This document shows, one piece after another, positions 44,505 to 64,000 of a DNA stretch of 64,000 nucleotides. Below the pieces are notes generated by a model that was not told the DNA's origin, did not search any database, and worked only from the letters and a program-made list of their open reading frames with translations. Position 1 is the first letter of the stretch. The number at the start of each line of letters is the position of its first letter. The stretch is from Allomuricauda sp. (GTDB lineage Bacteria; Bacteroidota; Bacteroidia; Flavobacteriales; Flavobacteriaceae), in assembly GCA_040285615.1 (NCBI GenBank), contig JAVJRL010000012.1:765257-829256 (forward strand), read 5' to 3'. The position numbers and the translations under genes were made by a program.

Positions 44505-44564
44505 TTCTTTGTTCTTTAGGTTTTTTGGAACTTAAAAAGACTACATTTGCAAAAAATTCGACTG

Positions 44565-45407: not shown

Positions 45408-45517
45408 TTTCTTTAGGGATTGATTGTTAAAGAGAGGCTTATTGGTTTTGTATAACCCACAGATGCAGTTATATAAGGTTTAAGTTTAGTCCATTAGGAT
45501 TTGATTTTGCCTTAATA

Positions 45518-45802
45518 CTATTTCATATCCAAATGAATTCCTTGTAAGAGGAAATCAATCAAGCCTTCCCAGTCTAGGATTGCCCAGAGGATGGGAAAAA
45601 CAAATAGTAAGTAAATTATAATGTAACCTACTCTGGTCCTTTTTAGGAAACTAATAAGGAAATATACAAGAAGATAATACAGAAACAGGAAGCCAAAAGC
45701 AATACTAAAAATTGGCATAAACCCACCTAAGAATAGTGAGGCAAGAGTACTTGCCAGAAGCAGTATCAGTATTATTTTGGTTGTAGCTTTTATTTTGTTC
45801 AT
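45518..45802 (-). CDS. Small hypothetical membrane protein (3 TM helices)
   Basis: 94-aa ORF, strongly hydrophobic (IILILLLASTLASLFLGGFMPIFSIAFGFLFLYYLLVYFLI). No family recognised. Confidence 0.4.
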   Translation of the reverse strand: MNKIKATTKIILILLLASTLASLFLGGFMPIFSIAFGFLFLYYLLVYFLISFLKRTRVGYIIIYLLFVFPILWAILDWEGLIDFLLQGIHLDMK

Positions 45803-45936
45803 TATCCTTGCCCAATGGTTCTGTTTCGAGGAATGTGCCTGGTTAAGATCGATAATTTATTTTGATAGTACTATTGATAATTGATAAATACACCTTTCGG
45901 GTTGATGGATTGAAGTTTACAGGTGGGTTTTAACAC

Positions 45937-48126: not shown

Positions 48127-48258
48127 TGTTTGTTTAGTGCAGCAAAAGTAATGATTTACTTTCATTTTTAACAATAGATCATAATTGTCCCTCTTGAATT
48201 AACAAATAAATATTTTTAAGGTTAATAATTACTTATTTGGATGTAAAAAGGTGCACCA

Positions 48259-49098: not shown

Positions 49099-49290
49099 GG
49101 TTAATGTTTTTTTAAGGATGACAGGGAAGGAGGATTGTTACAGTTTCAACTTGAGGACTAAATATTCCATTTACTTCCACTTGATGTGAACTCAATATTT
49201 TTTGAAGCAAACATTCGAATCAATTTATTGGCTTCAGTTTGTTTTATGGAAAATTAGTAGCTTTGGATATTTGGACTAAAACTAATAATC

Positions 49291-50883
49291 TTAGTATTTC
49301 ATATCCTCAAACAACGTCCATTCGTTGGGGTCCAAAACAATGGAATCGGGTCGGTCTTTGCTTTCGATTGCTATGTTTTGGTTACGCTGATCTACTTTAA
49401 TGGTTTTGATTGTCATTTTACCATCTTTCACTATACCTATTTCCAAAGGAAATTCAAATACGTGATGGTCTTGGAGTTGCTGTACTTTTAGGTTGACCTT
49501 TCCGTTGCTATGATCCCAATTCCATTTGATCTGAGGGTGGCCCTTTATAAATAGCCATTGCTCAAAAAAGGATGTTAGATCTTCGCCTGATACTTTTTCC
49601 ATTACATGCCGAAAATCGTCGGTAAGTACATTGCTGTTTTGGTAGGTGGCGTAGTAGTTTCGGATGCCTTCCCAAAATATACCATCTTCCAATTTGTGAC
49701 GTAGCATGTTCAACACCCATCCCCCTTTTTCATAGGTGTTGGTGCTCAATACCTTCATAGGGTCTTTTATACTGAGGTCCACAATGGGCGCAGGCTTTTT
49801 TTGGTAGTAATCAAAAATCTCTTTTTTGTCGATGGCCAATTCTTTTTTTCTACGTTCATCTCCATACTCACTTTCCAAATAAAGAATGGAGAAGTAGGTG
49901 GCAAATCCTTCACTCAACCAAACGTGGTTCCAGCTTTTCTCCGTCGCGGAATTTCCGAACCATTGGTGGGCAATTTCGTGGGCAATCAATGGTTCCACGG
50001 TTTTATTGCCCGTGACCGAATTTTCAAAATAGGCAATGGTCCCTGCATTTTCCAGTCCACCCCATTGGGTCTTTGCCTGCATGTTGGCCAGTTTGGCGTA
50101 CGAATATGGCCCGATATGATCAATAAAATACTCAAGCACATTTCCTGCAACGCTGTAATCACCAAATCCTTCCAAACGGTTTTGCGGATACACCCATGCT
50201 GAAACTTCAACACCATCAATATCATCAACCAATCGACTTGCAAATTCTGTGACGCCGATAGTCATCACTTTAGTGGCCACGGGAGCAGGTTCGTTATAAA
50301 TGGTAAGTTTATAACCGTTTTCCAAATTGCTTTCTTCTACTTTTTTACCAGTGGCCACCACATCGTAATGATCAGGCGCGGTGATCTGGAATTCCACACT
50401 TGCCTTATCGTACGGATGGTCCACTGATGGCAACCAATGTCTGGCCAAGTTGGGCCAATTGTCGCCAAAAAAGGAACGTTTTCCAAATTTGGTAGAGGCT
50501 ATGACCAACCCTCTTTCTGGAATTCCTTGGTATTTGACGGTAAAAGCTTGTATCGAATCGCTAGAATTCTTCGGAACTATGTTGATTTTGTTGTTGCTAT
50601 ATGTGTAGCTGGCTTGGGAGTCGTTTTCCAACACTTCGGTGACTTCCATGCCAAATTCCCCTGACTTTTGGACAAGGTCCAAGGAAAAGGGCCCCACATT
50701 TTCTTTGAACTGAACAGTTACGTGAGCTTCCCCTTTAATTTCGTTGGACGCATCATTTAAATGAAGACCAAAAACATAGTTTTGGATATCAACGGATTCG
50801 TTTTTCGCATACACATCCTGTGCAAACGAAAAATTGGAAAAAGTAACAAATAGAAAAAAACTAAGTAAAATTCTGATTGACAT
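49291..50883 (-). CDS. M1-family zinc metallopeptidase (aminopeptidase N-like)
   Basis: The HEIAHQWFGN zinc motif is present with the downstream WLSEGFATY glutamate and a GLENAG (GAMEN-like) exopeptidase motif. It has a signal peptide. Confidence 0.9.
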   Translation of the reverse strand: MSIRILLSFFLFVTFSNFSFAQDVYAKNESVDIQNYVFGLHLNDASNEIKGEAHVTVQFKENVGPFSLDLVQKSGEFGMEVTEVLENDSQASYTYSNNKINIVPKNSSDSIQAFTVKYQGIPERGLVIASTKFGKRSFFGDNWPNLARHWLPSVDHPYDKASVEFQITAPDHYDVVATGKKVEESNLENGYKLTIYNEPAPVATKVMTIGVTEFASRLVDDIDGVEVSAWVYPQNRLEGFGDYSVAGNVLEYFIDHIGPYSYAKLANMQAKTQWGGLENAGTIAYFENSVTGNKTVEPLIAHEIAHQWFGNSATEKSWNHVWLSEGFATYFSILYLESEYGDERRKKELAIDKKEIFDYYQKKPAPIVDLSIKDPMKVLSTNTYEKGGWVLNMLRHKLEDGIFWEGIRNYYATYQNSNVLTDDFRHVMEKVSGEDLTSFFEQWLFIKGHPQIKWNWDHSNGKVNLKVQQLQDHHVFEFPLEIGIVKDGKMTIKTIKVDQRNQNIAIESKDRPDSIVLDPNEWTLFEDMKY

Positions 50884-50891
50884 AAATTCAA

Positions 50892-50919
50892 GTTGAAAGC
50901 CTTAGGCTTAAATTTCAAC
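50892..50919 (-). terminator. Hairpin between argH and the M1 peptidase gene (weak terminator or start-site structure)
   Basis: On the minus RNA the sequence is GUUGAAA-UUUAAGCCUAAGGC-UUUCAAC, with a 7-bp outer stem and an inner GCC/GGC pair. It is followed by UUGAAUUU and ends 8 nt before the peptidase ATG. The U-tract is poor. Confidence 0.3.
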
Positions 50920-50933
50920 CCAATTTATCCATT

Positions 50934-52217
50934 TTACTCAAAAACTTTGTCCATTTTCTCCTTTATCTGTTCCAAACACAGATTGCCCAGGCTTCCTTCG
51001 TGGGTATGGTCAATATCCCGTTTTGGTTTAAAATTACCATTTTCAATGGCCTTACCCATAGTTTTATAGGCATCACGGAACGGCATCCCGTTTTTTACAA
51101 GTTCGTTCAAAGTGTCGACACTAAAGAGATAATCGTATTTGGGGTCGTCCAAAATGTTTTTGTTTATTTTGATCTCTTTAAGACTGAAGGTTATCATCTC
51201 CAAACAAGCATGCATATCCTGTAACGCGGGAACAATTACTTCTTTTACCAATTGAAGGTCCCTGTGGTAACCACTGGGTAAATTGTTCATGATTAAGATG
51301 AGTTGATTGGGTACCGCTTGTATTTTGTTGCACTTGGCCCTGATCAATTCGAACACATCGGGGTTCTTTTTGTGAGGCATAATGCTACTTCCAGTGGTAA
51401 GTTCGTTAGGAAAGGAGATAAAATCGAAATTCTGGCTCATGTAGAGGCAAATGTCCATCGCCATTTTGGATAGCGTAGCGGCAACGCTCGAGATTCCGAA
51501 TGCAGTTGCTTTTTCCACTTTCCCACGTCCCATTTGGGCAGCGACCACATTATATTTTTGGGTGGTAAAATCCATTTTCGCAGTAGTAAAGCTTCTATCG
51601 ATTGGGAAGGAGCTTCCGTAACCTGCTGCACTACCCAATGGGTTTTGGTCAGCAACTTTATGTGCAGCCTGTACAAAGTACAGGTCGTCTACCAAACTTT
51701 CAGCATAGGCGGAAAACCAAAGCCCAAAAGAAGAGGGCATGGCAATTTGAAGATGAGTGTACCCGGGTAACAATACATTTTTGTGCTTGTCGGCGAGTTT
51801 CATCAATAGATCGAACAAGGTTTTGACCTGACTTTTGATTTCGGTCAACTCATCTTTAAGGTACAATTGCATGGCCACTAGCACCTGATCGTTTCGGGAT
51901 CGAGCGGAATGGATTTTTTTACCCGTATCCCCTAATTTTTCGGTCAGCATGAACTCAATTTTGGAGTGCATGTCCTCAAAATCATCCTCAATGATAAATT
52001 TTCCCTTTTCAATGTCCTTGGCAATGGCATCCAATGCTTTTACAAGGTCTTTGGCTTCGTCTTCAGAAATCAATCCAACCTTGCCCAGCATTTTTGCGTG
52101 GGCCTTGGAGGCGATTACATCATATTTTGCCAATACCAAATCAAGTTCGCGGTCGTTACCAACGGTAAAGTGGTCTATTTTTTTATCGGTGCTGAATCCT
52201 TTGTCCCAGAGTTTCAT
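50934..52217 (-). CDS. argH: Argininosuccinate lyase
   Basis: MKLWDKGFSTDKKIDHFTVGNDRELD is present, along with the fumarate-lyase signature region GSSIMPHKKNPD. Total length is 427 aa. Confidence 0.95.
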   Translation of the reverse strand: MKLWDKGFSTDKKIDHFTVGNDRELDLVLAKYDVIASKAHAKMLGKVGLISEDEAKDLVKALDAIAKDIEKGKFIIEDDFEDMHSKIEFMLTEKLGDTGKKIHSARSRNDQVLVAMQLYLKDELTEIKSQVKTLFDLLMKLADKHKNVLLPGYTHLQIAMPSSFGLWFSAYAESLVDDLYFVQAAHKVADQNPLGSAAGYGSSFPIDRSFTTAKMDFTTQKYNVVAAQMGRGKVEKATAFGISSVAATLSKMAMDICLYMSQNFDFISFPNELTTGSSIMPHKKNPDVFELIRAKCNKIQAVPNQLILIMNNLPSGYHRDLQLVKEVIVPALQDMHACLEMITFSLKEIKINKNILDDPKYDYLFSVDTLNELVKNGMPFRDAYKTMGKAIENGNFKPKRDIDHTHEGSLGNLCLEQIKEKMDKVFE

Positions 52218-52318
52218 AGTTTTTCTTTTGTCATTCCCATGAAGATGGGAACCTTAATTAAATTGTTCTCGAAGGTCCCTTTGACTGCGCTCAGGGTACA
52301 TTTAAGAACTGATATTGG

Positions 52319-53389
52319 TTACTGTAAAAATCCCATTAGGGTTTTGATGTAAATATCTATTCCTTCTTCAATTTCATTTACAAAGATAAATTCGTTGGCT
52401 GAATGCGAACGAGTGCTGTCACCCGGACCCAATTTAACCGATTGACAGGTCAATGCAGCTTGATCGGACAAGGTAGGTGAACCATAGGTTTTTCTGCCAA
52501 GAGCCAATCCACTTTTTACCAAATCGTGGTCTGGGTCTATGGAAGATGAGTTCAATCGTAAAGAACGTGGTGTCATTTTACAAGGCGCTTCTTTTTGAAG
52601 GATGTCTGCTATTTCCTGATTGCTGTAACAATCGTTCACGCGGACATCAATCACCAAATCGACATGGCCTGGTACTACGTTGTGCTGATTGCCCGCGTTA
52701 ATTTGCGTTGTGGTCAGTTTTACTTCACCCAAAGCATCAGAAACTTTATCAAAGGAATAATCTTTGAGCCATCGCAATACTTCGATAGTGTTGTAAATCG
52801 AATTGTTATCGTTTGGATGCGCAGCGTGCGAGGGAGTTCCTTCAACAACGGCATCAAAAACCACCAAACCTTTTTCAGCGATGGCCAAATCCATCAAGGT
52901 GGGTTCACCCACAATGGCCACATCAATTTTTGGTAGAATGGGGAGCAATGCTCTGATGCTTTTTTCTCCGGCATCTTCTTCTTCACCTGTAGCAGCCATA
53001 ATTATGTTATGACTCAGGTTCTCCTTTTCATAAAAATGAACAAAAGTGGCCAAAAGCGATACCAAGCATCCACCTGCATCATTACTCCCAAGACCATACA
53101 GTTTACCATCTTCAATATGGGCATCAAAAGGGTCTTTGGTGTATGCGCTATTCGGTTTTACGGTATCGTGGTGGGAGTTTAGTAGCAAGGTGGGTTTGCT
53201 TTCATCAAAATGTTTGTTGAAGGCATAAATGTTATTATGCTGTCTTTTGGTCTTGACTCCAAATCCCAGCAAAAATTCCTCAATGGCATCACCTGTTTCA
53301 TCTTCTTCACCAGAAAAGGAAGGTGTACTGATGAGTTTTTTTAGTAGTTCTAGGGCTTTTCCCGTTAATATATCTTGATATATTTTCAT
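52319..53389 (-). CDS. argE: M20-family deacylase (acetyl/succinyl-ornithine deacylase, ArgE-like)
   Basis: ORF extends to 53449. The ATG at 53389 overlaps the argB stop (ATGA). M20 motifs are LLLNSHHDTVKP, GSNDAGG and ATGEEE. Confidence 0.85.
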   Translation of the reverse strand: MKIYQDILTGKALELLKKLISTPSFSGEEDETGDAIEEFLLGFGVKTKRQHNNIYAFNKHFDESKPTLLLNSHHDTVKPNSAYTKDPFDAHIEDGKLYGLGSNDAGGCLVSLLATFVHFYEKENLSHNIIMAATGEEEDAGEKSIRALLPILPKIDVAIVGEPTLMDLAIAEKGLVVFDAVVEGTPSHAAHPNDNNSIYNTIEVLRWLKDYSFDKVSDALGEVKLTTTQINAGNQHNVVPGHVDLVIDVRVNDCYSNQEIADILQKEAPCKMTPRSLRLNSSSIDPDHDLVKSGLALGRKTYGSPTLSDQAALTCQSVKLGPGDSTRSHSANEFIFVNEIEEGIDIYIKTLMGFLQ

Positions 53390-54165
53390 AAAGTCAATGT
53401 CGTATAATCTGAATTGTCTACTTCGAGCATATTGGTGTTTCCTACGCAAACTTTGGAGACCTCATTGCGTAAAGCATAAAAGCAGTTGTGCATTTTGGGA
53501 AGCATTCCATCCGCAATAATGCCATAGGCCAAAAGTTCATCATAGCCTTTGGAATCTATATGTTTGATTACGGAGTTTTCATCTTCCACATCTTGAAGTA
53601 CTCCTTTCTTTTCAAAGCAATAATATAGCGTAGTCTCAAACTGGTCGGACATGGCAATGGCCAATTCCGCAGCAATGGTATCGGCGTTGGTATTCAACAT
53701 TTGTCCTTTTCCATCGTGTGTGAGCGCACAAAAAATGGGAGTAAAACCCGCTTGAAGCAATTTAAAAATTCCGTAGGTGTTTACCATATCCACATCACCG
53801 ACATAACCAAAATCTACATTTTTTTTTGGTCTTTTATGTGCTCGGATGGCATCGGCATCGGCACCGCTCATTCCAATGGCATCGGTACCCAATGATTGCA
53901 ATTTGGCAACTATTTTTTTACTGTATAATCCCCCGTAGACCATAAGCGCGATGTCCAAGGTTTCGGCATTGGTAATACGTCTTCCGTTTACCATCTTGGA
54001 TTCTACACCCATTTGATTGGCCAATTCTGTGGCCTTATTTCCACCTCCGTGTACCAAAATTTTATTGCCGTCCAACTTAGAGAACAGCCCCAATACATGT
54101 TTACACTTTTCTGCGTCCTCTATTAGGTTACCGCCTATTTTTACTACGGATAATTTTTGTTTCAT
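53386..54165 (-). CDS. argB: Acetylglutamate kinase
   Basis: LSVVKIGGNLIED, ILVHGGG and LNTNADT are amino-acid-kinase fold motifs. Total length is 259 aa. Confidence 0.92.
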   Translation of the reverse strand: MKQKLSVVKIGGNLIEDAEKCKHVLGLFSKLDGNKILVHGGGNKATELANQMGVESKMVNGRRITNAETLDIALMVYGGLYSKKIVAKLQSLGTDAIGMSGADADAIRAHKRPKKNVDFGYVGDVDMVNTYGIFKLLQAGFTPIFCALTHDGKGQMLNTNADTIAAELAIAMSDQFETTLYYCFEKKGVLQDVEDENSVIKHIDSKGYDELLAYGIIADGMLPKMHNCFYALRNEVSKVCVGNTNMLEVDNSDYTTLTL

Positions 54166-54166
54166 G

Positions 54167-54913
54167 CTATGTATTTATAATTCCCCCATCAATGGTCACT
54201 GTGGTTCCGGTAATCCAAGAACTATCATCAGAAACCAAAAAAAGCACAAGTTTAGTAATATCTTCAGGTGTGCCCAACCTTTTTAACAATGTAGTCCTTT
54301 TCGCATTTTCAACAGCAGTTTCTGGGTTTTCGAAGGCCTTGGCGGATTCCCATAATAAAGGCGTATCCACTGGGCCAGGACAAATGGCGTTCACTCTAAT
54401 TTTTGGTGCATAATCCACTGCCATTTGCTTCATTAGGGCGACGGATGCTGCTTTTGAAGCACAGTAGGCAGGATGGTTGGGAAAACTCTTAAAGGCAGCG
54501 ATTGAGGCATTGATCAAAATGTTGCCTTGAGATTCTTTTAGTAAGAAGGGGAGCGCATATTTGCAAAGATAAAATATGGAGCTCAAATTGGTGCTGATAG
54601 TGTTCTGCCAAATATCAATAGGCAGCTCTTGAACATTCCCTAAGCCGAGAACACCTGCGTTTAATGATAGGATATCCAATTTACCAAAAGTTTCCAGAGC
54701 GGTATCGACCAATTTTTTGTTGTAAGATGGGTCGGTAATATCTCCGGAAATGAACACGGCATTATCCAGACTTTCTTCCAAAGCCTTTCCTCTTTCTTGG
54801 TTTCTGCCAGAAAGTACTAAACTGGCTCCTTCGGAGGAAAACCCTTTGGCAATGGCCTTTCCCATTCCGCTTGTAGCCCCGGTTACTATACAGACCTTTT
54901 CCTTTAGTTTCAT
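54167..54913 (-). CDS. SDR-family oxidoreductase embedded in the arg operon
   Basis: The cofactor motif is VCIVTGATSGMGKAIA, the NAG motif is LNAGV, and the catalytic pair is S...YCASK. It is separated by 1 nt from argB and has a 4-nt overlap with argF'. Confidence 0.9.
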   Translation of the reverse strand: MKLKEKVCIVTGATSGMGKAIAKGFSSEGASLVLSGRNQERGKALEESLDNAVFISGDITDPSYNKKLVDTALETFGKLDILSLNAGVLGLGNVQELPIDIWQNTISTNLSSIFYLCKYALPFLLKESQGNILINASIAAFKSFPNHPAYCASKAASVALMKQMAVDYAPKIRVNAICPGPVDTPLLWESAKAFENPETAVENAKRTTLLKRLGTPEDITKLVLFLVSDDSSWITGTTVTIDGGIINT

Positions 54914-55848
54914 TTGTCTTCCAATATATTCTTCAATACAATTTGAGCTGAAAAAACCCTATTTTTAGCTTGTTCCACGACCAAGGATTGATCACTATCC
55001 AAAACAGCATCCTCCACAATCATATTTCTTCGAACGGGTAGACAGTGCATAAACTTGGCTTTACCCAATTTCTCTTTGGTGATGGTCCAATTAGTGTCTT
55101 TGCTCAAAACCTTTCCGTAATCGGAATAACTGCTCCAGTTTTTCACGTAAACGAAATCAGCATCTTTTAATGCTCTATCTTGGTCGTATTCAATCTTGCA
55201 TCCTTGGGTCAATTCGGAATTAAGTTCATATCCCTTTGGATGAGTGATTACGAAATCTGCATCCTGTAATTTCATCATCTGTATAAACGAGTTGGCCACC
55301 GCATGGGGCAACGCTTTAGGGTGAGGTGCCCAAGAAAGTACGACTTTGGGTTTCTTTATGGTTTCGTTCTCTTTCAAAGTTATGGCATCTGCCAAAGCTT
55401 GAAGTGGGTGACCCACCGAACTTTCCATATTTACCACAGGAATGGAAGCATACTTTGCAAATCCGTTGATGACTTCTTCTGCTTCGTCCTTTTCCTTGTC
55501 CTTCAAACCGGCAAATGCACGAATTGCAACGATGTCGGAATATTGAGAAACCACTTGCGCAGCCTCTTTAATATGTTCCGAAGTACCTTGGTCCATTATG
55601 GTTCCATCACCGTATTCCAAAGCCCAGCCTTCGTTGCCAAAATTCATGACCATTACTTCCATGCCAAGGTTCATGGCGGCCTTTTGCGTGCTAAGGCGGG
55701 TTCTTAGGCTATTGTTGAAAAACAACAGACAAATTGTTTTTCGCTTGCCCAAATCCTCAAACTGATAAGGGTCTTTTTTTAAGGTGATTGCTTTATCCAC
55801 CCAATCGGGGAGGGATTCTATATCGTTGACTGTTAAATAATGCTTCAT
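54910..55848 (-). CDS. argF': N-acyl-L-ornithine carbamoyltransferase (argF'-type; succinyl-ornithine type expected in Bacteroidota)
   Basis: The carbamoyl-phosphate motif is NNSLRTRLS. HPLQALAD, the characteristic SWAPHPKALPHAVANS segment of the acyl-ornithine transcarbamylases, and HCLPVRRN are also present. Confidence 0.85.
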   Translation of the reverse strand: MKHYLTVNDIESLPDWVDKAITLKKDPYQFEDLGKRKTICLLFFNNSLRTRLSTQKAAMNLGMEVMVMNFGNEGWALEYGDGTIMDQGTSEHIKEAAQVVSQYSDIVAIRAFAGLKDKEKDEAEEVINGFAKYASIPVVNMESSVGHPLQALADAITLKENETIKKPKVVLSWAPHPKALPHAVANSFIQMMKLQDADFVITHPKGYELNSELTQGCKIEYDQDRALKDADFVYVKNWSSYSDYGKVLSKDTNWTITKEKLGKAKFMHCLPVRRNMIVEDAVLDSDQSLVVEQAKNRVFSAQIVLKNILEDK

Positions 55849-56972
55849 TATAATGCTTTTTTCAGCGCTTCAAAAAATAGGTCTATGTCTTCTTTGGTGA
55901 TGTTCAACGCAGGCAAGAACCGTAACAACTTCTTGTTTTTGGCACTTCCTGTGAACATGTGCTGTTCCATGATCATTTTTTTACGAAGGGGGGCAACCTC
56001 AAAATCGAATTCCAGTCCAATCATCAATCCTTTTCCTTTTATATTTTTGATTTCTGGAATCTCTGCAGCTTTTTCTTTGAAATATTTACCAAGTTTAGCC
56101 GCATTTTGAATTAGACTTTCATCCTCCAGAACTTCCAGAACCGCAAGACATGCTACACATGCCAAATGGTTACCTCCAAAGGTGGTTCCCAAAAGTCCGT
56201 ACGATGGTTTGAATGACTCGTGAATCAATATGCCACCAACGGGGAAACCATTCCCCATGCCCTTGGCAATAGAAATGATGTCAGGTTCGATTCCATGATG
56301 CTGAAAAGCAAAGAATTTACCACTGCGTCCGTAGCCCGATTGTACTTCATCCGCGATAAGGACCACGTTGTTTTCCTTGCATTTGTTGGAGATGAATTGG
56401 AAGAATTCTGTGCTAGGTTCGTCCAATCCACCTACTCCTTGGATGGCTTCCAAAATTACGGCACAATACTCATCAGAAGTGATTGCTTTTTCAAAAGCTT
56501 CTTTATCATTCAATGCTAAGAAAGTGACCTTTTGTTGTTTGTTGATTGGGGCATTGATGCTAGGATTGTCCGTAGCAGCAACGGCGGCTGAGGTTCTTCC
56601 GTGAAAACTATTGGTAAAAGCGATTACTTTGGACTTTCCCGTGTGGAAAGAAGCCATTTTTAAGGCATTTTCATTGGCTTCCGCTCCTGAATTGCACATA
56701 AAAAGGTCATAATTTTCACAGCCTGATAATTTTCCTAATTTTTCGGCCACCGCTTCTTGTAAGGGATTTTGGACGGAGTTGCTATAAAAAGCCATGTTGT
56801 CCAATTGCTCCTTGATTCGTTTAACGTAATGCGGGTGTGTATGTCCAATGGAAATTACGGCATGACCACCATAAAAATCCAGATATTTTTGTCCTTTATC
56901 GTCCCAAACTTCAATGCCTTTAGCCTTTACTGGGGTTACGTCATAAAGCGGGTATACGTCGAATAATTTCAT
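55848..56972 (-). CDS. argD: Class III aminotransferase (acyl-ornithine aminotransferase)
   Basis: YLDFYGGHAVISIGHTHP and LIADEVQSGYGRSGKFFAFQ are present. The PLP lysine lies in DIISIAKGMGNGFP. Confidence 0.9.
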   Translation of the reverse strand: MKLFDVYPLYDVTPVKAKGIEVWDDKGQKYLDFYGGHAVISIGHTHPHYVKRIKEQLDNMAFYSNSVQNPLQEAVAEKLGKLSGCENYDLFMCNSGAEANENALKMASFHTGKSKVIAFTNSFHGRTSAAVAATDNPSINAPINKQQKVTFLALNDKEAFEKAITSDEYCAVILEAIQGVGGLDEPSTEFFQFISNKCKENNVVLIADEVQSGYGRSGKFFAFQHHGIEPDIISIAKGMGNGFPVGGILIHESFKPSYGLLGTTFGGNHLACVACLAVLEVLEDESLIQNAAKLGKYFKEKAAEIPEIKNIKGKGLMIGLEFDFEVAPLRKKMIMEQHMFTGSAKNKKLLRFLPALNITKEDIDLFFEALKKAL

Positions 56973-56974
56973 TT

Positions 56975-57769
56975 TTATCCCTTTCTGATTTGACTGATTT
57001 TTTCAAATGAGGAAACAATTCCCCTGATCAATGATGAACTCAACCCTTGGTGCTCCATTTCGTTCAAACCTTCAATGGTACATCCTTTAGGTGTGGTTAC
57101 CCTATCTATTTCTTCTTCGGGATGACTACCCGATTCAATCAATAGACTTGCGGCTCCGTTACAGGTGTGCATGGCCAATTCTTGCGCCTCCTTTGCATCA
57201 AACCCCAATTGGATTGCCCCTTGTGTCGTGGCGCGAATCAAACGCATCCAAAAGGCAATTCCACTTGCGCAGATTACTGTTGCGGCTTGCATTTGTTCCT
57301 CAGGAATTTCCATGGTATGACCCATACGGTTAAAAATGGCCTTGGCTAGATCAACCCGTTTTTTTCCAAGTTCATTACTACAGATGCACGTCATGGATTT
57401 ACCTACCGAAATGGCGGTGTTGGGCATACTTCGGATGATGAACTTATCCGAACCGATGATTCCCTCAATTTTTGAAATACCGAATCCTGTAATGGTACTG
57501 ATCACCACGTGTTTTTCGGTGAGCAGGTCTTTGACTTCTTCCAAAATAGAAGCAAAATGTCCCGGTTGCACGGCAAAAACAAGAATGTCCGAATTTTTAA
57601 CGGCTTCTTGGTTATCGGAAGTAACGGTTACGTTTCCGTATTTTTCAAATTCCTTGATGGATTCGGTGTTTCGTTTGGTGAGGTACATGGTAGTGGCTCC
57701 ATTGCTATGCAATATGCCTTTGGCAATGGCCAGTCCCAAATTTCCCGCTCCAATGATGGCTATTTTCAT
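56975..57769 (-). CDS. proC: Pyrroline-5-carboxylate reductase
   Basis: MKIAIIGAGNLGLAIAKG is a Rossmann motif. The C-terminal VTTPKGCTIEGL is the P5CR signature. Confidence 0.92.
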   Translation of the reverse strand: MKIAIIGAGNLGLAIAKGILHSNGATTMYLTKRNTESIKEFEKYGNVTVTSDNQEAVKNSDILVFAVQPGHFASILEEVKDLLTEKHVVISTITGFGISKIEGIIGSDKFIIRSMPNTAISVGKSMTCICSNELGKKRVDLAKAIFNRMGHTMEIPEEQMQAATVICASGIAFWMRLIRATTQGAIQLGFDAKEAQELAMHTCNGAASLLIESGSHPEEEIDRVTTPKGCTIEGLNEMEHQGLSSSLIRGIVSSFEKISQIRKG

Positions 57770-57779
57770 GATGGTTATT

Positions 57780-58754
57780 TTAAAATACTCCTGCTTTTAA
57801 CAACAGACCTTCGGTTTCAGGGAAGCCGAACATCAAATTCATATTTTGTACTGCTTGTCCCGATGCGCCTTTCAATAAATTATCGATAGCAGAGGTAATC
57901 AAAAGAAGGTCATCGTGTTTGTGCAAATGGATGTGGCATTGGTTGGTGTTCACGACTTGCTTTAAATGCAATGCTTCTTCCGACATATGGGTAAAGGCAG
58001 CATCTTTATAAAAATCGTTGTACAGCTCTTTTGCTTCCTCCAAGCTACCGTTGTAGTTGGTGTAGGCGGTGGCCAAAATCCCTCGGGTAAAGTTTCCTCG
58101 ATTGGGCAAGAACATCAGTTTTCCGACAGACTTACCGAAGGAATTCAAGCTTTCTCCTATTTCTCCCAAATGTTGGTGTGTAAATGGCTTGTACCACGAA
58201 ACATTGTTGTTTCTCCAGCTAAAATGAGATGTAGCCGATAGTCCTACACCAGCTCCGGTACTTCCTGTAACAGCGTTGATATGTACATCATTCCCTAGGA
58301 TACCTGCTTTTGCCAATGGTAACAATGCCAATTGGATGGCGGTTGCAAAACAACCGGGGTTTGCAATGGCCTCTGCGGATTTTATGGCAGACTTGTTCAA
58401 TTCTGGAAGCCCATAAATGAACCGTTGACCATTAAAAACGGAATCAGCCTGTAATCTGAAATCGTTGCTGAGGTCAATGATTTTTGTTGATGTCGAAAAT
58501 TTGTTCTCATTCAAAAATGAAGTCGAGTTTCCATGCCCCAAACAAAGAAATACCACATCAACCTCTGGATTAACCTCTCCAGAGAACTTCAAATCCGTTT
58601 GTCCCAACAAATCCTGATGAGCGGAAGTTATGGGTTTGCCCGCTCTTGTGGTACTGTACACAAAGTCAATCTCCGTTTTTGGATGATTGAGTAGTAGCCT
58701 GATTAACTCACCGCCCGTGTACCCAGAACCTCCTATGATTCCTACTTTGATCAT
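57780..58754 (-). CDS. argC: N-acetyl-gamma-glutamyl-phosphate reductase
   Basis: MIKVGIIGGSGYTGGELIRLLLNHP is present. The active-site Cys lies in IANPGCFATA. Total length is 324 aa. Confidence 0.95.
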   Translation of the reverse strand: MIKVGIIGGSGYTGGELIRLLLNHPKTEIDFVYSTTRAGKPITSAHQDLLGQTDLKFSGEVNPEVDVVFLCLGHGNSTSFLNENKFSTSTKIIDLSNDFRLQADSVFNGQRFIYGLPELNKSAIKSAEAIANPGCFATAIQLALLPLAKAGILGNDVHINAVTGSTGAGVGLSATSHFSWRNNNVSWYKPFTHQHLGEIGESLNSFGKSVGKLMFLPNRGNFTRGILATAYTNYNGSLEEAKELYNDFYKDAAFTHMSEEALHLKQVVNTNQCHIHLHKHDDLLLITSAIDNLLKGASGQAVQNMNLMFGFPETEGLLLKAGVF

Positions 58755-59938
58755 GAATCTTGGTTTACGTGATTGGCAATTTTTCCTGAGTTGGACAAAA
58801 TTTTGATGAATCCCTTGGCCTCATCGGCGGTCCAACCCTTGTTCATTTCACCATAACTTCCAAAGGAAGCGTTCATCAAATCATGCTTGGAAGAGATTCC
58901 GTTCAATTCAAATCGGTAGGGGTGCAAAGTCACAAATACATCTCCTGACACATGCTTTTGAGTATCGGTCAAAAAGGCTTCGATGTTTCGCATGACCTCA
59001 TCCAAATAGTTTCCTTCGTGCAACAACATTCCATAAAAATTGCCCATTTGTTCTTTTTGGTATTGCTGCCATTTGCTCAGAGTATGTTTTTCCAGCAAAT
59101 GGTGTGCTTTTATAATGATCAAGGGAGCAGCAGCTTCAAAACCTACTCTTCCCTTAATACCGATAATGGTATCGCCAACGTGAATATCCCTTCCAATAGC
59201 ATATTTGGAGGCAATGGCAGATAATTTTTCGATGTTCGCCACAGGGCTGCCCTGTTCGCCATCCAAAGCAACCAGCTCGCCATTTTTAAAGGTCAATTTC
59301 AATTCTTTCGGCAATTCTTTTTCCAATTGACTTGGGTAGGCACTTTCGGGTAAAGCTTGGTGAGAGGTCAAAGTTTCGTCACCTCCAACGGATGTTCCCC
59401 ATAATCCTCTATTGATTGAATATTTTGCCTTTTCCCAAGGATAGTCGATTCCGTTTTTTTGCAAGTAGTCGATTTCTTCTTCCCTTGCCAATTTTTTATC
59501 CCTGATTGGGGTAATGATTTGAATTTCCGGCGCGAGGATTTGAAAAATCATGTCAAATCTTACTTGGTCATTGCCTGCTCCTGTACTTCCATGGGCTATA
59601 TACTTGGCTCCAATTTTTTTGGCATGATTGACAATCTCTATGGCCTGCACAATTCTTTCCGCACTTACCGAAAGGGGATAGGTGTTGTTTCTAAGTACAT
59701 TTCCGTAGATGAGGTATTTCACCACTTTGTCATAAAAGGTGGAAACGGCATCAATGGAAGTGTAGGAGGTGGCACCCAGAGCAATCGCTTTTTCTTCAAT
59801 ATCCTCTATTTCAGCTTTGCTGAAACCTCCCGTGTTCACACTTACGGCATGCACTTCGAACCCTTCTTCTTGCGAAAGATACTTTGCACAATAAGACGTA
59901 TCCAATCCGCCACTATAGGCTATAACTAATTTTTCCAT
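58751..59938 (-). CDS. argG: Argininosuccinate synthase
   Basis: The ATP-PPase motif is VIAYSGGLDTS. AHGSTGAGNDQVRF is also present. Total length is 395 aa. Confidence 0.95.
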   Translation of the reverse strand: MEKLVIAYSGGLDTSYCAKYLSQEEGFEVHAVSVNTGGFSKAEIEDIEEKAIALGATSYTSIDAVSTFYDKVVKYLIYGNVLRNNTYPLSVSAERIVQAIEIVNHAKKIGAKYIAHGSTGAGNDQVRFDMIFQILAPEIQIITPIRDKKLAREEEIDYLQKNGIDYPWEKAKYSINRGLWGTSVGGDETLTSHQALPESAYPSQLEKELPKELKLTFKNGELVALDGEQGSPVANIEKLSAIASKYAIGRDIHVGDTIIGIKGRVGFEAAAPLIIIKAHHLLEKHTLSKWQQYQKEQMGNFYGMLLHEGNYLDEVMRNIEAFLTDTQKHVSGDVFVTLHPYRFELNGISSKHDLMNASFGSYGEMNKGWTADEAKGFIKILSNSGKIANHVNQDS

Positions 59939-60002
59939 TTTTTTTTGATTCTTTAAATATTGTTGTCATACGGAGCATTCTGGACTATGCTCGAATTGAC
60001 AT

Positions 60003-60617
60003 TTATTTATCTTTCTTTTTAAGAAAAAGGCTTTCTTTTATACTTTTTAATCTTTTAAAGGCCTTTTTGTTGATTTTTTCGGGTTCTTGTTTTTGTGCTT
60101 TTGGGTCGTGCAACATTCCTGTGCACAGACACATTTTTCTGTCGGTTCGTGTGAGAATGTCAAAATTCTTGCAAGTTTGACAGCCTTTCCAGAATTCGGG
60201 GTCGTCCGTAAGTTCGGAAAAGGTGACAGGTTTGTAGCCGAGCTCATAGTTCATCTTCATTACCGCCAGTCCTGTAGTGATACCAAAAATTTTGGCATCT
60301 GGGAATTTTTTTCGTGATAGATCAAAGACTGCTTTCTTAATTTTCTTGGCAAGCCCTTGATTTCTATAATCTGGATGCACAATCAAACCCGAGTTGGCCA
60401 CGAAATCTTTGTTTCCCCAGACTTCGATGTAGCAGAATCCGGCAAACTTATCTCCATCCAAAGCAATAATAGCATTGCCGTTTTGGAGACGTTTTATGAT
60501 ATATTCGGGCGTACGTCTAGCGATACCGGTACCTCGGACTTTAGCCGAATCGGTGATGGTATCACTAATGATCTGTGCGTATTTAAAATGTGATTCGTTA
60601 GCAACAATAATTTCCAT
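60003..60617 (-). CDS. GNAT-family N-acyltransferase (first gene of the arg operon; ArgA-like role inferred) with C-terminal Cys cluster
   Basis: ORF extends to 60692. The ATG at 60617 gives MEIIVANESHFKYAQ. The GNAT acyl-CoA motif is VHPDYRNQGLAKKI. The C-terminus has CQTC-x13-CLC followed by a Lys-rich tail. Confidence 0.8.
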   Translation of the reverse strand: MEIIVANESHFKYAQIISDTITDSAKVRGTGIARRTPEYIIKRLQNGNAIIALDGDKFAGFCYIEVWGNKDFVANSGLIVHPDYRNQGLAKKIKKAVFDLSRKKFPDAKIFGITTGLAVMKMNYELGYKPVTFSELTDDPEFWKGCQTCKNFDILTRTDRKMCLCTGMLHDPKAQKQEPEKINKKAFKRLKSIKESLFLKKKDK

Positions 60618-60708
60618 TGCAAGCGATAGTTCTGTAAAAAATTGAAAAAATGTATTTGGAGATTTTGCGGAAATGGACTCACCTATTTCCAATAGTTATG
60701 TTGCACCC

Positions 60709-60792
60709 TTACGGGCGACGACGGCGGGGAGTAAACGGACTAATAGGAGCAGCAATGCTCAAAGTAGATATTATGTACAATTGTCCTTTCAT
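60709..60792 (-). promoter_or_regulatory. Candidate arginine-operon leader peptide ORF (27 codons, four consecutive Arg codons before the stop)
   Basis: My own translation of the minus strand runs from ATG 60792-60790 to TAA 60711-60709 and gives MKGQLYIISTLSIAAPISPFTPRRRRP*. The Arg codons CGC CGT CGT CGC occupy 60726-60715. The stop lies 91 nt upstream of the first arg-operon ATG (60617). The ORF is too short to appear in the supplied track. Confidence 0.4.
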
Positions 60793-60812
60793 TCTGTGGC
60801 TAATGTACAAAT

Positions 60813-60824
60813 TAATTCGAATTA
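60813..60824. promoter_or_regulatory. Perfect 12-bp palindrome TAATTCGAATTA upstream of the arg leader (possible operator)
   Basis: The palindrome was read directly from the sequence. It lies between the stop of the upstream gene (60839) and the leader ATG (60792). Its function is unknown. Confidence 0.25.
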
Positions 60825-60838
60825 GACTAAAGTTCAGA

Positions 60839-62191
60839 TTACTTTTTGAAGAAATGTAACTTTTTTGGCCTGCTACCTATCATTTCATAAATAAAGAAGC
60901 CGATTACCAAAATGTATTCAATGGCCAACAACCACAAATTCTCTTTGTAGTCTGGGTTGGAATAGGCATAGTAACTGAGAATAATGGTGCAAGACCATAC
61001 CAAAGGGAACCTATAATTAGTGAAGATGGCAAAGCCTAACAAGAAAACCACATACCACGGATGAACGGTGCTGGAAAGAAAATAGTAAATGGCAAGCGCG
61101 AAAACCATTGAGGTGATGACGCTATCCAGTTTTTGGTTTTTCCGTAGGAATGCAATCAACAATACAATCATTACTATCGCTTTGGTAAGCATAGAACCAT
61201 AGGAATCGATAAGTTCCCATGGTTTGGCTTCGTAATAGGTGATGGCAATTTTTTTTACCACATTGTAAATGCTGGCATTGAATTCAAAATTGGAGAACCA
61301 CAGCCCAACGGTCTCTGAATAATTATCTATAAAAACAGGAGAGTAAAAGGGGAGTAGCAGTGCTGCACATCCCAATATAACAAGGGTATAAAAAACAGCA
61401 CTCTTTTTAAGTCCAAAATATTTTATAAAGATGGGCAGAAACAATAGTGGCATCAATTTTACCATAATGGAAATGGCATAAACGGGTATTGCCCATAACC
61501 ACTTGTTTTTTGATATGAGGTACAGGGCCCACACAAAAAAGAAGAGCATTACGCCTTCATAATGGAGATTGCCGGTGAGTTCAATAATGACCAATGGATT
61601 CAAAAAGTACCAAAAAGCCATGTGATTTGCCTTGTTGAGGTTCTGTAGTAGCTTTCTTCCGAAATAAAGCACACCCAAGTCTGCCAAGATTACCGTTAAA
61701 CGCATAGCAATCATGGAACCCATTACGCTTCCTCCCCCTAAAATTGAGGCGATTGCGAAAAGAATTTGGTTTACGGGGGGATAGTTGCTGTAGTGTCGTG
61801 CATTGAGGTCAGTCATTCCTTCGCGCAACTCGTTCATGCTGGCAAAGGATACCGTACCCTGTTCCATAATCTGGTCCGGTGTGTACAAATAAGGATTTAT
61901 CCCATTTTTAATGAGTTCACCATCCCAAATGAATCGGTAAAAATCTTGTGAAAGATTAGGTTCTGCAATCAAAAACACCAACCTAAACAGGATTCCGACA
62001 ATCAAAAGGAATTTGAAGTTCCATTTTTCAAATTGGATGAGTTTGTAGCACAAGAAAAAGAGTGCTCCAAAAAGCATAAACAGCTTTACAAAATCCGTAC
62101 GGACCAAGTTGTAAGCAAAACTCCAATAGAATAAAATACAAGCGACGGCAAAAAGTATCGGGTATCTATGCAGTCGCCAATAAGATTGCAT
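60839..62191 (-). CDS. Polytopic membrane protein, GT-C-like glycosyltransferase (DUF2029/mannosyltransferase-like)
   Basis: 450 aa with about 12 TM helices. An extracytoplasmic loop motif, DFYRFIWDGELIKNGINPY, follows the early helices, as in GT-C-fold enzymes. It is linked to two GT2 genes. Confidence 0.5.
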   Translation of the reverse strand: MQSYWRLHRYPILFAVACILFYWSFAYNLVRTDFVKLFMLFGALFFLCYKLIQFEKWNFKFLLIVGILFRLVFLIAEPNLSQDFYRFIWDGELIKNGINPYLYTPDQIMEQGTVSFASMNELREGMTDLNARHYSNYPPVNQILFAIASILGGGSVMGSMIAMRLTVILADLGVLYFGRKLLQNLNKANHMAFWYFLNPLVIIELTGNLHYEGVMLFFFVWALYLISKNKWLWAIPVYAISIMVKLMPLLFLPIFIKYFGLKKSAVFYTLVILGCAALLLPFYSPVFIDNYSETVGLWFSNFEFNASIYNVVKKIAITYYEAKPWELIDSYGSMLTKAIVMIVLLIAFLRKNQKLDSVITSMVFALAIYYFLSSTVHPWYVVFLLGFAIFTNYRFPLVWSCTIILSYYAYSNPDYKENLWLLAIEYILVIGFFIYEMIGSRPKKLHFFKK

Positions 62192-62200
62192 GTGTATGGA

Positions 62201-63685
62201 TTAGGCCTTGGAAGTTAAGGATTTAAAGAATACAAATCCGAAACCTAGGAACAACATGAGGTGGAAAGGGAACAATCCATAGTCGTTCAATGGTATGGCA
62301 CTGTACATTCCGAAAAGGAAATAAATCATTAAAGCAAACTCCAAAATCATGTTGGGAGACAATTTGGTGGTCAAATATTTATTGCCCTTCCAGGTGTCCT
62401 TTATACTATTGATATTGAACTTTGGAGTTCGAACAAATTCACTTCGTTTTCCCAAATGTCCTTCCAAAACAGCCACGCTATTGTGCAAAGAGAAGCCCAA
62501 TGCCACCGAGAAGAAGGTAAAGAAGAGTTTAATGTAGTCCACAAAATTATCAAAACTGCTACCCTGAATACTTTTATAGGTAAACCAATAACATACAAAT
62601 AAGATGATGGTACTCAAAATAAAGAAGCTTGTCACTTCAAAAACCCAACCTAAATGTCCGTAGGTATTTTTGATGTAGAGCATTGGAATGCTCAACAAAG
62701 CTACGGTGAACACGCATAGGAACATGGAGCTGTTCAACAAGTGCATTACACCATGAAATTTGGTTTTGAAAGGTATGTTTTTGGAAGTGATAACACTCCA
62801 AACTGTTTTTCTAAAGTTTTCAGCACCACCTTTGTTCCAACGGAACTGTTGCGAGCGCGCCGCACTTATAACGACGGGAAGCTCAGCAGGGGTTTCCACA
62901 TCTTCCAAATACTTGAATTTCCAATTTTTCAATTGTGCACGGTAGCTCAAATCCAAATCTTCGGTAAGGGTGTCGCCTTCCCAGTTTCCTGCATCAAAAA
63001 TGCATTCTTTTCTCCAAATACCTGCAGTACCGTTAAAGTTAATGAAATGTCCTTTCGAATTTCTTCCTACTTGCTCTAAAGTAAAGTGGGCATCCAAAGC
63101 AAAAGCTTGGATACGGGTAAGGGTAGAGTAATCTCTGTTGATGTGTCCCCAACGGGTCTGCACCACACCAATTTCCTCATCCTTAAAATAAGGAACGGTC
63201 TTTTTTAGCCAATCGGACTCTGGAAGGAAGTCTGCATCAAAAATGGCGATAAAGTCACCTTTGGCGATTTCCAAACCTTCTTTAAGGGCTCCTGCCTTAA
63301 ATCCTTTTCGGTTTTCCCTTCGGATGTGTTGAATGTCCAAACCAGTTTCTTGAAGTTCTTTGACCCTTTGGGCTGTTTCTATAACCGAATCATCTGTAGA
63401 GTCATCCAATACCTGGATTTCCAATTTGCTTTTTGGATATTCTATTTTGGCGATGTTCTCCAACAAACGCTCCATTACATATTCCTCGTTGTAGATGGGA
63501 AGTTGAATGGTGACGAATGGAATTTCTTTGGGATCGAGTAGGTTGAATTTTGGAGCCTCTTCGTTTCTTTTCTTGTAACCGAGATAGTTTACCAAGAGAT
63601 TCAATTGCGCAAGGCTGTAAAAGAATATCAAAAGTAAGGCGAAACTATAAATAGCAATGATGATGTAAGCAATAGCAAGTCCCAT
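62201..63685 (-). CDS. Family 2 glycosyltransferase, processive (cellulose-synthase-like) type
   Basis: An N-terminal TM helix is followed by QVLDDSTDDS, FDADF, TEDLDLS and QQFRWNKG (QxxRW). C-terminal TM helices follow. Confidence 0.85.
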   Translation of the reverse strand: MGLAIAYIIIAIYSFALLLIFFYSLAQLNLLVNYLGYKKRNEEAPKFNLLDPKEIPFVTIQLPIYNEEYVMERLLENIAKIEYPKSKLEIQVLDDSTDDSVIETAQRVKELQETGLDIQHIRRENRKGFKAGALKEGLEIAKGDFIAIFDADFLPESDWLKKTVPYFKDEEIGVVQTRWGHINRDYSTLTRIQAFALDAHFTLEQVGRNSKGHFINFNGTAGIWRKECIFDAGNWEGDTLTEDLDLSYRAQLKNWKFKYLEDVETPAELPVVISAARSQQFRWNKGGAENFRKTVWSVITSKNIPFKTKFHGVMHLLNSSMFLCVFTVALLSIPMLYIKNTYGHLGWVFEVTSFFILSTIILFVCYWFTYKSIQGSSFDNFVDYIKLFFTFFSVALGFSLHNSVAVLEGHLGKRSEFVRTPKFNINSIKDTWKGNKYLTTKLSPNMILEFALMIYFLFGMYSAIPLNDYGLFPFHLMLFLGFGFVFFKSLTSKA

Positions 63686-64000
63686 TATTTTAAACTGTAT
63701 TTAAAGATCCAACCCAATATTTTTATGCCCGCAAATATAGTACCTTTTACTGTACCTGATACTTTTGAGATGCCAATTCTTCGTTTGTAACGCACTGGTA
63801 CTTCGATATATGACATTTTTTTCCTCAAAATTTTCAATTGCATTTCCACAGTCCACCCATAAGTTGTGTCCTGCATTTCCAATTCTTTGAGCTTTTCATA
63901 TTTTATCGCCCTAAAAGGTCCTAAATCCGTAAATTTTGACCTGAAAAACAATCGCATTAAAAATGTGGCCAAATTGTTCCCAAAAACTTGTTGTGGAGTC
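63685..64000 (-). CDS. Family 2 glycosyltransferase (Dpm1/polyprenol-phosphate glycosyltransferase-like), C-terminal part only
   Basis: The track ORF 63685..63972 starts at TTG, but the frame stays open to the window edge (…TPQQVFGNNLATFLMRLFF…). The DLGPFRAIKYE and GWTVEMQLK motifs are typical of this GT2 subgroup. Its stop overlaps the start of the next gene. Confidence 0.75.
   Translation of the reverse strand, partial: TPQQVFGNNLATFLMRLFFRSKFTDLGPFRAIKYEKLKELEMQDTTYGWTVEMQLKILRKKMSYIEVPVRYKRRIGISKVSGTVKGTIFAGIKILGWIFKYSLK

Follow-up and report, generated by a model that had tools for sequence, protein, structure and literature searches.

The 64,000-nt stretch of Allomuricauda sp. DNA analyzed here (hereafter the window) carries an arginine-biosynthesis operon on its minus strand, and directly upstream of that operon lies an unannotated open reading frame (ORF) of 27 codons plus stop, MKGQLYIISTLSIAAPISPFTPRRRRP, in which four consecutive Arg codons stand just ahead of the end. 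This ORF is quite probably a regulatory, Arg-sensing leader, as judged from its conservation among orthologous loci. With moderate confidence, we regard as the best overall explanation that a translated leader ORF ties expression of the arginine-biosynthesis genes to how much charged tRNA-Arg is available. How the state of the leader would be passed on to the operon is a more tentative matter, and an output through ribosome occupancy or Rho, rather than through an RNA switch, is possible but short of probable; the sensor side of the proposal is well supported, and the output side is not. Comparison of orthologous sequences supports the initial annotation, which had named the ORF as a candidate Arg-sensing leader peptide; its function, its translation, the arginine response, and the entire output step are inferred.

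The leader reading frame and its arginine codons

The leader ORF occupies positions 60709 to 60792 of the minus strand, with its ATG at 60792–60790 and its TAA at 60711–60709, within the 221-bp spacer (60618–60838) that precedes the operon. Its Arg-codon run, CGC CGT CGT CGC (60715–60726, minus strand), is the presumed sensor, read by tRNA-Arg with the anticodon ICG, and a single Pro codon, CCG (60714–60712, minus strand), separates the run from the TAA. The operon itself (50934–60617, minus strand) comprises, by NCBIfam and Pfam assignments, a GNAT gene (60617–60003), argG, argC, proC, argD, an N-acyl-ornithine carbamoyltransferase gene, an SDR gene, argB, argE, and argH; the GNAT start is fixed at the ATG at 60617 by the length of its homologs, 204–206 aa. 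By its GNAT protein, the window belongs to Flagellimonas/Allomuricauda. The coordinates first assigned to the ORF, the Arg run, the GNAT ATG, and the hairpins H1 and H2 and T-runs described below all held on the minus strand. Four consecutive CGY codons (CGT or CGC) occur once in the window when all six frames are considered, against 0.005 instances expected from Markov simulations, and the run is therefore beyond chance.

The compared loci were drawn from the 80 closest species genomes, 120 metagenomic contigs, and five further named genera, all at the orthologous GNAT locus; the sample contains neither other Bacteroidota orders nor the genus Flavobacterium proper. Across about 200 such loci from more than 25 Flavobacteriaceae genera, the leader ORF recurs together with a promoter box (see below) and the operon arrangement, as an ORF of 22–31 codons that ends in (R)RR-P-stop or R-P-R-P-stop and whose stop lies 83–98 nt before GNAT. 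An ATG-initiated ORF with at least 3 consecutive Arg codons, ending within that same interval, is present in 59 of the 80 species, and most of the others carry the same ORF with the ending RPRP-stop, RRP-stop, or RLRP-stop, so that an Arg-Pro-stop ending is found in 75 of the 80; nearly all of the 120 metagenomic loci likewise carry the leader ORF. A GTG start takes the place of the ATG in Urechidicola and Aureibaculum and in leaders L073 and L074. An alignment of this spacer had been proposed with the initial annotation, and its outcome agrees with the expectation expressed there, in that the ORF and its Arg run are conserved while N-terminal codons, third positions, and flanks drift.

The pattern of variation is that of a coding sequence. 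Among 151 unique leader sequences, the leader frame alone is open, the five other frames carrying 63–268 stops each; an ORF on the opposite strand was considered and rejected, as all antisense frames contain stops. Gaps in the nucleotide alignment of the unique leaders are multiples of 3 in 567 cases and not so in 6, and the spacing between promoter box and stop rises by 3 nt at a time, through 85, 88, 91, and 94 nt. Between species, identity is 44% over codons 2–16 and 90% over the last five codons. The Phe and Pro ahead of the Arg run (F-x-P) are kept through synonymous codons (TTT or TTC for Phe; CCT in 33, CCC in 38, CCA in 7, and CCG in 3 cases for Pro). Because of the open frame, the 3-nt indels, and the synonymous variation, the leader ORF is judged to be under coding selection. 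Arg accounts for 15.6% of leader residues compared with 2.8% in the genes of the window, a 5.5-fold enrichment, and the last 6 positions hold 2–4 Arg codons in 69 of 70 species and in the 151 unique ORFs. All 274 Arg codons at positions −5 and −4 from the stop are CGT or CGC, with T and C exchanging freely at the third base. Since only CGT and CGC are used there, although the genes of the window prefer AGA, CGA, and CGT, the Arg cluster points to a constraint at the level of the codon or the tRNA. Judged by these alignments, the ORF, its frame, its promoter-proximal position, its CGY-restricted Arg cluster, and both hairpins are under selection and specific to this operon.

It could be argued that the ORF is untranslated, or that it arises by accident from a conserved RNA or DNA element that does not code for protein, considering that H1 fixes the nucleotides of its last three codons. 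We find this extremely improbable in view of the single open frame among six, the indels in multiples of 3, a start codon fixed 7 nt after the promoter box, and the fact that the Arg, Pro, and Phe codons vary only synonymously; a DNA operator at H2 is moreover excluded by G·U pairs and non-palindromic arms.

A different possibility is that the encoded peptide itself is the sensor, such that an F-x-P-x-R-R-R-P nascent chain stalls the ribosome at the Pro-stop when free L-arginine is high and thereby represses the operon, in the manner of the fungal arginine attenuator peptide, TnaC, or SpeFL. The amino acids of the last 8–9 positions are conserved while their codons vary synonymously, and the invariant Arg-Pro-stop resembles the end of TnaC, which finishes in ..HRP before its stop; a C-terminal Pro is known to slow peptide release. 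However, the Arg codons are confined to CGY although six synonyms exist, and this restriction argues for a constraint at the tRNA or RNA level; the H1 stem, retained even in untranslated form, accounts for the frozen CGC-CCG; and the tail is absent altogether from lineages ending in RRT, ..RRFVR, or ..RRRCAF. The known bacterial ribosomes held at stop codons furthermore activate the genes downstream of them, the reverse of what a biosynthetic operon would need. Arrest by the nascent peptide is hence argued against as the main mechanism, for which we deem it improbable, and an arrest-peptide component is possible from the F-x-P conservation.

Lineages in which the C-terminus or the position of the ORF differs still carry Arg-rich mini-ORFs, with endings such as RRT, RRRIGLRRTFVRA, RMRRFVR, RRRCAF, and RRFARRPLWA, each followed by a stop. 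In Mariniflexile, Gelidibacter, Confluentibacter, and Neptunitalea (L070, L076, L077, and L080), a second Arg-rich mini-ORF lies upstream, at about −300 to −220 from the GNAT ATG, beside the RRP-stop, H1, and H2 module (examples are MNTLKNKIRPSSPGFRASITRRSF, MILMKNKIRPSSPAMVLRRRCAF, and MKNIILNIRRNYPTRSPERRRCM, each closed by a stop), giving a two-tier leader. In the Lutibacter-like, Urechidicola, and Zhouia loci (L201, L202, and L204), the gene upstream of the arg leader is, respectively, a threonine dehydratase gene, a divergent hisG, and a divergent gene for a chorismate-binding TrpE-like enzyme; in these three, two regulated leaders may share one intergenic region.

The ORF also stands in a fixed relation to its predicted promoter. 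As the sigma-70 model is inapplicable to Bacteroidota, the promoter was called by the Bacteroidetes sigma-A “−7 box” (consensus TAnnTTTG), which in the window reads TACATTAG at 60800–60807 (minus strand) and is conserved as TACATTTG or TACTTTTG, 7 nt (range 5–10) before the leader ATG, in 70 of the 80 species. Published flavobacterial promoter maps place TAnnTTTG at −12 to −5, with the start site 4–5 nt after the box (PMC9723704; PMC6847099). Given this geometry and the 7-nt gap between box and ATG, the predicted transcription start falls at about A60795 and the leader ATG would therefore lie about 3 nt from the 5′ end, so that the leader ORF is predicted to open the operon transcript, in the same orientation, as a nearly leaderless mRNA, a feasible arrangement in this phylum. 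Leaderless mRNAs make up about 5% in F. psychrophilum (PMC9723704). Within the window, the leader ORF is the sole short ORF with an amino-acid run right behind a −7 box. The only other short ORF directly behind a TAnnTTTG box in the window is a 13-codon ORF, MLHFKKLQNEENN, at 29518–29477 on the minus strand.

With its start so close to the 5′ end, a leader ribosome parked under arginine limitation could in principle act as it does on ermC, by shielding the mRNA from 5′-end-dependent decay. Such protection would need no RNA switch and would have the correct polarity; it would leave H1, H2, and the U-tracts that follow H2 in some genera unaccounted for, and we hold it to be very improbable.

Hairpins H1 and H2

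Two hairpins were predicted downstream of the Arg run, and RNAalifold applied to 45 diverse leaders returned only these two. H1, CGCCC-GUAA-GGGUG (60704–60717, minus strand), is built on the end of the ORF itself, its 5′ arm consisting of the last Arg codon and the Pro codon and its tetraloop containing the stop codon. Its 4-bp stem, GCCC/GGGY, is kept in 25 unique variants that include exchanges between G·U and G-C and one change from C-G to A-U. A single-stranded spacer (60691–60703, minus strand) follows, variable in sequence and fixed in length, being 12–14 nt in 161 of 169 unique leaders (95%). H2, GGAAAU-A-GG-UGAGU-CC-AUUUCC (60669–60690, minus strand), has a lower stem that co-varies and an apex that does not: in 52 unique variants, five pairs of the lower stem never break (100% paired), the compensatory changes including A-U to C-G, U-A, or G-C and arms such as GGGAUU/AAUCCC, GGAGUU/AACUCC, and GGAGCU/GGCUCC, and the apex (the bulge-UAGG segment, the UGNGU loop, and CC) is invariant across more than 25 genera. 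These substitutions, together with G·U pairs that would mismatch on the opposite strand, indicate that H2 is an RNA helix on the operon strand, and its reading as a DNA operator or ARG box was discarded on account of the G·U-pair covariation and the non-palindromic arms. The H2 22-mer is unique within the window and was found in exact form in 120 metagenomic contigs, where 113 of 113 assessable copies lie 45–57 nt upstream of a GNAT homolog. Beyond H2 extends a G-poor, A/U-rich untranslated stretch (60618–60668, minus strand) with T-runs at 60650–60636, which may serve as a zone of pausing or termination and as the region where translation initiates.

A metagenomic lineage related to Lutibacter (L088, L089, L140, L155, L157, and L182) separates what the clade of the window combines. 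Its leader ORF, ending in TPPPTTYRMRRFVR and a stop, lies about 170 nt upstream of H1 and H2, its H1 (GCCC-N5-GGGC) is non-coding, and its H2 is identical and followed by a short U-run. Because the H1 stem persists there as non-coding RNA, the constraint that freezes CGC-CCG in the window's clade acts at the RNA level, and the Arg-rich mini-ORF and the H1–H2 module are two recurring components, fused in that clade. The GNAT of these six loci is about 68% identical to that of the window, the closest named relatives are Lutibacter and Urechidicola, and this GNAT has an apparent TTG start. A consensus fold of the variant-lineage leaders was uninformative, there being too few distinct sequences.

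Could the RNA module, rather than the ORF, be the main regulator, binding a protein or a small ligand (possibly arginine, at the bulged, G-C-rich apex) while the ORF forms a separable layer or merely delivers ribosomes? The invariance of the UAGG/UGNGU/CC apex atop a co-varying stem, the fixed spacing to H1, and the retention of the module about 170 nt from the ORF in the lineage just described all speak for this; so does the UGAGU loop kept on a different stem in the Lutibacter-like leader, and no RNA partner for the apex was found. Yet the element is very small, with a linker that is not conserved in sequence, and would make a poor ligand pocket; NCBIfam and Pfam reveal no candidate binding protein encoded nearby; and Arg-rich ORFs accompany the module in every lineage examined. 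We therefore regard it as unlikely that H1 and H2 are the principal regulator. A related proposal, which we treat as doubtful, gives both components a part: an attenuator without an antiterminator, in which a leaderless Arg-codon mini-ORF is fused to H1 and H2 and the H2 apex serves as a sensor or docking site. The partner of the apex would in that case be arginine, an arginine-responsive RNA-binding factor, RNA polymerase, or Rho, and the leader would integrate tRNA charging with a second signal. The apex may resemble arginine-binding bulged hairpins.

Several other roles for H2 were considered and set aside. The hairpin holds UAG and UGA triplets 4 nt apart, and in the window the UGA shares the frame of the leader ORF and stands 10 codons past its UAA. 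Read-through or frameshifting into these triplets was rejected, since they occupy no conserved frame (81, 44, and 26 cases across the 151 leaders). A bypass like that of gene 60, to a CCG after H2, was dismissed for want of a conserved landing triplet, as was pairing of the H2 3′ arm with the GNAT start codon, because the real starts vary (ATGAAA, ATGGAT, and others). A search of the window for a trans target of the H2 loop gave two near-complements, not above chance.

A possible path from ribosome position to operon expression

The mechanism that we favor places the sensing at the CGY cluster and leaves the output to the presence or absence of the ribosome. Transcription would start about 3 nt before the leader ATG, with no need of a Shine-Dalgarno sequence, as is normal in Bacteroidota, where translation proceeds without Shine-Dalgarno pairing. 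When arginine is plentiful, the ribosome would pass the CGY cluster, terminate at the UAA within H1, and leave, upon which H1 and H2 would fold and about 170 nt of untranslated RNA, first C-rich and then G-poor, would be exposed. RNA polymerase would then be stopped prematurely at or shortly after H2, most likely, in the clade of the window, via Rho or by pausing at the downstream T-runs, and, in genera where H2 carries a U-tract, with H2 as an intrinsic terminator. Under a shortage of Arg-tRNA, the ribosome would park on the CGY codons, covering both the C-rich 3′ end of the reading frame and the upstream arm of H1; the parked ribosome would bar the termination machinery, and the polymerase would read on into GNAT and argG.

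The composition of the leader is compatible with this scheme. C makes up 32–45% of the 3′ half of the leader ORF, and G makes up 5.7% of the region after H2 (60618–60668), compared with 13.3% across 603 further 5′ regions drawn from these genomes, falling to 3% at +48 to +71 after the leader stop. The C-rich half and the G-poor stretch together would fit a rut-like surface. The first run of at least four T's lies a median of 19 nt after H2, and the 239-nt leader as a whole is less structured than its shuffles (z +1.21). In Gelidibacter, Neptunitalea, Aureibaculum, and the Lutibacter-related metagenomic lineage, H2 is directly followed by U4–6, an arrangement that would tie H2 to termination. 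Among the outputs suggested in the initial annotation (switched downstream folding, Rho access, or translation), Rho access now seems the most plausible.

The obvious precedent for such a locus is the classical attenuator of the trp and his type, in which H1 would be the 1:2 hairpin and H2 the 3:4 terminator, and stalling would free the GGGUG arm and the spacer to form a 2:3 antiterminator, with GGGUG pairing to CCAUUUCC. The layout is indeed like that of trpL, with the cognate codons built into one hairpin, in its 5′ arm, and another hairpin behind it; about 10 of 65 leaders (L008, L010, L018, and L038 among them) can form an extended alternative hairpin that draws on GGGUG, the spacer, and the loop and 3′ arm of H2 and is iso-energetic with H2; the computed probability of H2 drops from 0.95 to 0.74 with a ribosome at the first Arg codon; and a U-tract does stand behind H2 in some genera. 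Nonetheless, no conserved alternative pairing emerged from RNAalifold or from a scan for duplex partners of each H2 arm, the sites being scattered, and in constrained folds compared with shuffled spacers H2 outdid its best competitor by a median of 3.5 kcal/mol. The complementarity of the spacer to H2 is lower in native leaders than after shuffling (mean z +0.33, p 6e-7), the minimum-free-energy fold of the window's leader keeps H2, 82% of leaders have no U-tract after H2, and no terminator was detected in the window's leader region. Consensus folding, the arm-partner scan, folds with the ribosome at three positions, and constrained folds against shuffles all failed to yield an antiterminator. 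Neither an intrinsic terminator nor an antiterminator, two of the features that define trp/his attenuators, was thus found in the window's clade, and we consider a classical attenuator unlikely. The suggestion that ribosome stalling would switch downstream folding accordingly did not stand: alternative pairing is not conserved, and the spacer avoids complementarity to H2.

The scheme of sensing at the CGY cluster with output by occupancy faces difficulties of its own, which weigh chiefly on the output. First, H2 is computed to fold whatever the position of the ribosome, with a probability of 0.74 when it is at the first Arg codon, 0.95 when it is at the stop codon, and 0.83 when it is absent, and there is therefore no computed sign of how stalling changes the outcome. 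Second, the terminator scan found no canonical hairpin-plus-U terminator in 60300–61300, in agreement with what had been noted before for this locus, and 139 of 169 leaders (82%) have at most 2 U's in the 8 nt after H2. Third, G-poor leaders are also typical of Bacteroidota translation-initiation regions. Fourth, the scheme leaves unexplained the invariant H2 apex, the F-x-P conservation, and the fixed 12–14-nt spacing, although the last matches the geometry of a hairpin-stabilized polymerase pause, a match that we offer as inference only. Fifth, a Pro-stop ending, slow in release, is unsuited to a leader that has to clear quickly; it may be a by-product of the H1 stem. Sixth, some leaders have two Arg codons only (RPRP-stop and RRP-stop), and one, L031, has a single one. 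Lastly, what is said of expression, of ribosomes, and of the response to arginine is derived from sequence. In a broader survey, sites resembling a canonical hairpin-plus-U terminator in 44001–64000 numbered 13, fewer than the 21.6 ± 4.4 of shuffled sequence, and none was seen at the end of the arg operon.

Known systems, neighboring genes, and significance

Leader-peptide attenuation is known for the Trp, His, Leu, Thr, Ile/Val, and Phe operons, and arginine operons are the textbook case of ArgR control. The earlier remark that no arg-operon leader peptide has been characterized stands, as none was found in the full-text literature searched, in Bacteroidota or elsewhere, nor in Rfam, Pfam, or NCBIfam. 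Rfam gave no relevant match at E ≤ 10 in 60300–61200 and none at gathering score across the window, six leader peptides had no match at E ≤ 10 in NCBIfam or Pfam, and ten leader peptides were absent from a collection of 15 billion proteins. A transcriptome study of F. psychrophilum reported leaders for ilvE, hisG, trp, and aromatic operons, so that leader-peptide attenuation has a precedent within the family, and none for arg (PMC9723704).

With the classical leaders (trpL, hisL, leuL, thrL, ilvL/ivbL, and pheL; Bacteroid-trp; and those of ilvE and hisG in F. psychrophilum, PMC9723704), the arg leader shares a short ORF directly upstream of a biosynthetic operon, a run of codons for the operon's own amino acid near the end of that ORF and in the 5′ arm of a hairpin, and a second hairpin before the first gene. 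It differs from them in its amino acid, arginine, in an mRNA predicted to be nearly leaderless and devoid of a Shine-Dalgarno sequence, in the failure to detect an antiterminator, in a spacer selected against pairing, and in a second hairpin that mostly lacks a U-tract and bears an invariant apex; the F. psychrophilum his leader, unlike the arg leader, ends in a long canonical terminator stem (PMC9723704). The arg leader would work like a leader-peptide attenuator but departs from the classical type in two defining features.

Closer to the proposed output are tnaC and speFL (reviewed in PMC12360218), which also have leaders of about 24–34 residues, C-rich RNA by the stall site, and, in TnaC, the Arg-Pro-stop ending, and in which, as proposed here, no RNA switch is involved and a parked ribosome masks the region where Rho loads. 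Those leaders, however, detect free Trp or ornithine within the exit tunnel and switch on catabolic genes, whereas the arg leader would respond to an opposite signal, probably uncharged tRNA-Arg at its CGY codons, its target is a biosynthetic operon, and the role of Rho is hypothetical. Pausing at Arg codons under arginine limitation is an input shared with S. aureus rbfL (PMC13009471) and the Salmonella/E. coli speF leader orf34/SpeFL (PMC6386406), neither of which controls arginine biosynthesis; rbfL differs further in using the rare codons AGA and AGG and in repressing translation of a biofilm regulator by occlusion of the ribosome-binding site (PMC13009471). In E. coli, argL is likewise a small translated ORF upstream of an arg gene, and a stop codon placed in it alters downstream expression; in the portion of that report available to us, argL overlaps the argF start in another frame, with no mention of an Arg run or of arginine sensing, and its locus is proteobacterial, ArgR-controlled, and of another architecture (bioRxiv 10.1101/511675).

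In fungi, the arginine attenuator peptide encoded upstream of arg-2/CPA1 has about 24 residues and responds to arginine, with the ribosome stalling near the stop codon. It resembles the arg leader as an upstream ORF that controls an arginine-biosynthesis gene, and differs in being eukaryotic, blocking scanning, sensing free arginine via the nascent chain, and having no Arg run and an unrelated sequence.

The genes around the leader offer some observations of their own. Taken mechanically, the GNAT ORF (60003–60692, minus strand) reaches up to a TTG at 60692 and so crosses H2; some database homologs of GNAT are 221–230 aa long (P0065, P0098, and P0121, for example) instead of 204–206 aa, and it is probable that some annotation pipelines run the gene too far, across the leader RNA. 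Within the operon, proC (56975–57769, minus strand) lies between argC and argD, and a gene for an SDR-family oxidoreductase (54167–54913, minus strand) lies between the carbamoyltransferase gene and argB. The argE-like deacylase ORF (52319–53449, minus strand), when taken from its first TTG, overlaps argB by 64 nt; because its NCBIfam matches begin at about residue 30, its true start is probably further downstream. The upstream neighbor (60839–62191, minus strand) encodes a 450-aa protein with no Pfam match in the window, and its stop lies 31 nt before the −7 box of the arg leader. The C-terminus of this protein (similar to ..GQKLVIRKN before the stop) and its position are kept in many loci, and its Leptobacterium counterpart matches the MptA_B/GT87 glycosyltransferase families.

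What the arg leader would mean extends from annotation to regulatory logic. The leader ORF had never been called and some pipelines probably carry GNAT across H2, so that the annotation of the locus is corrected here. It fills a gap, in that leader-peptide attenuation of an arginine-biosynthesis operon appears neither in the literature searched nor in the curated libraries, and it could provide flavobacterial genetics with a compact arginine-responsive control element. If the apex did prove to be a sensor, bacteria would have in this leader their own equivalent of the fungal arginine attenuator, one with an RNA part to which no relative has been described. It further offers a test case for ribosome-mediated attenuation with leaderless translation that dispenses with a Shine-Dalgarno sequence and, apparently, with an RNA switch, and it bears on the biology of Rho and of pausing in Bacteroidota, which is almost unexplored. 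Finally, its strong conservation in the Flavobacteriaceae, a dominant family among marine polymer degraders, implies a different regulatory logic for the synthesis of a nitrogen-rich amino acid in this family.

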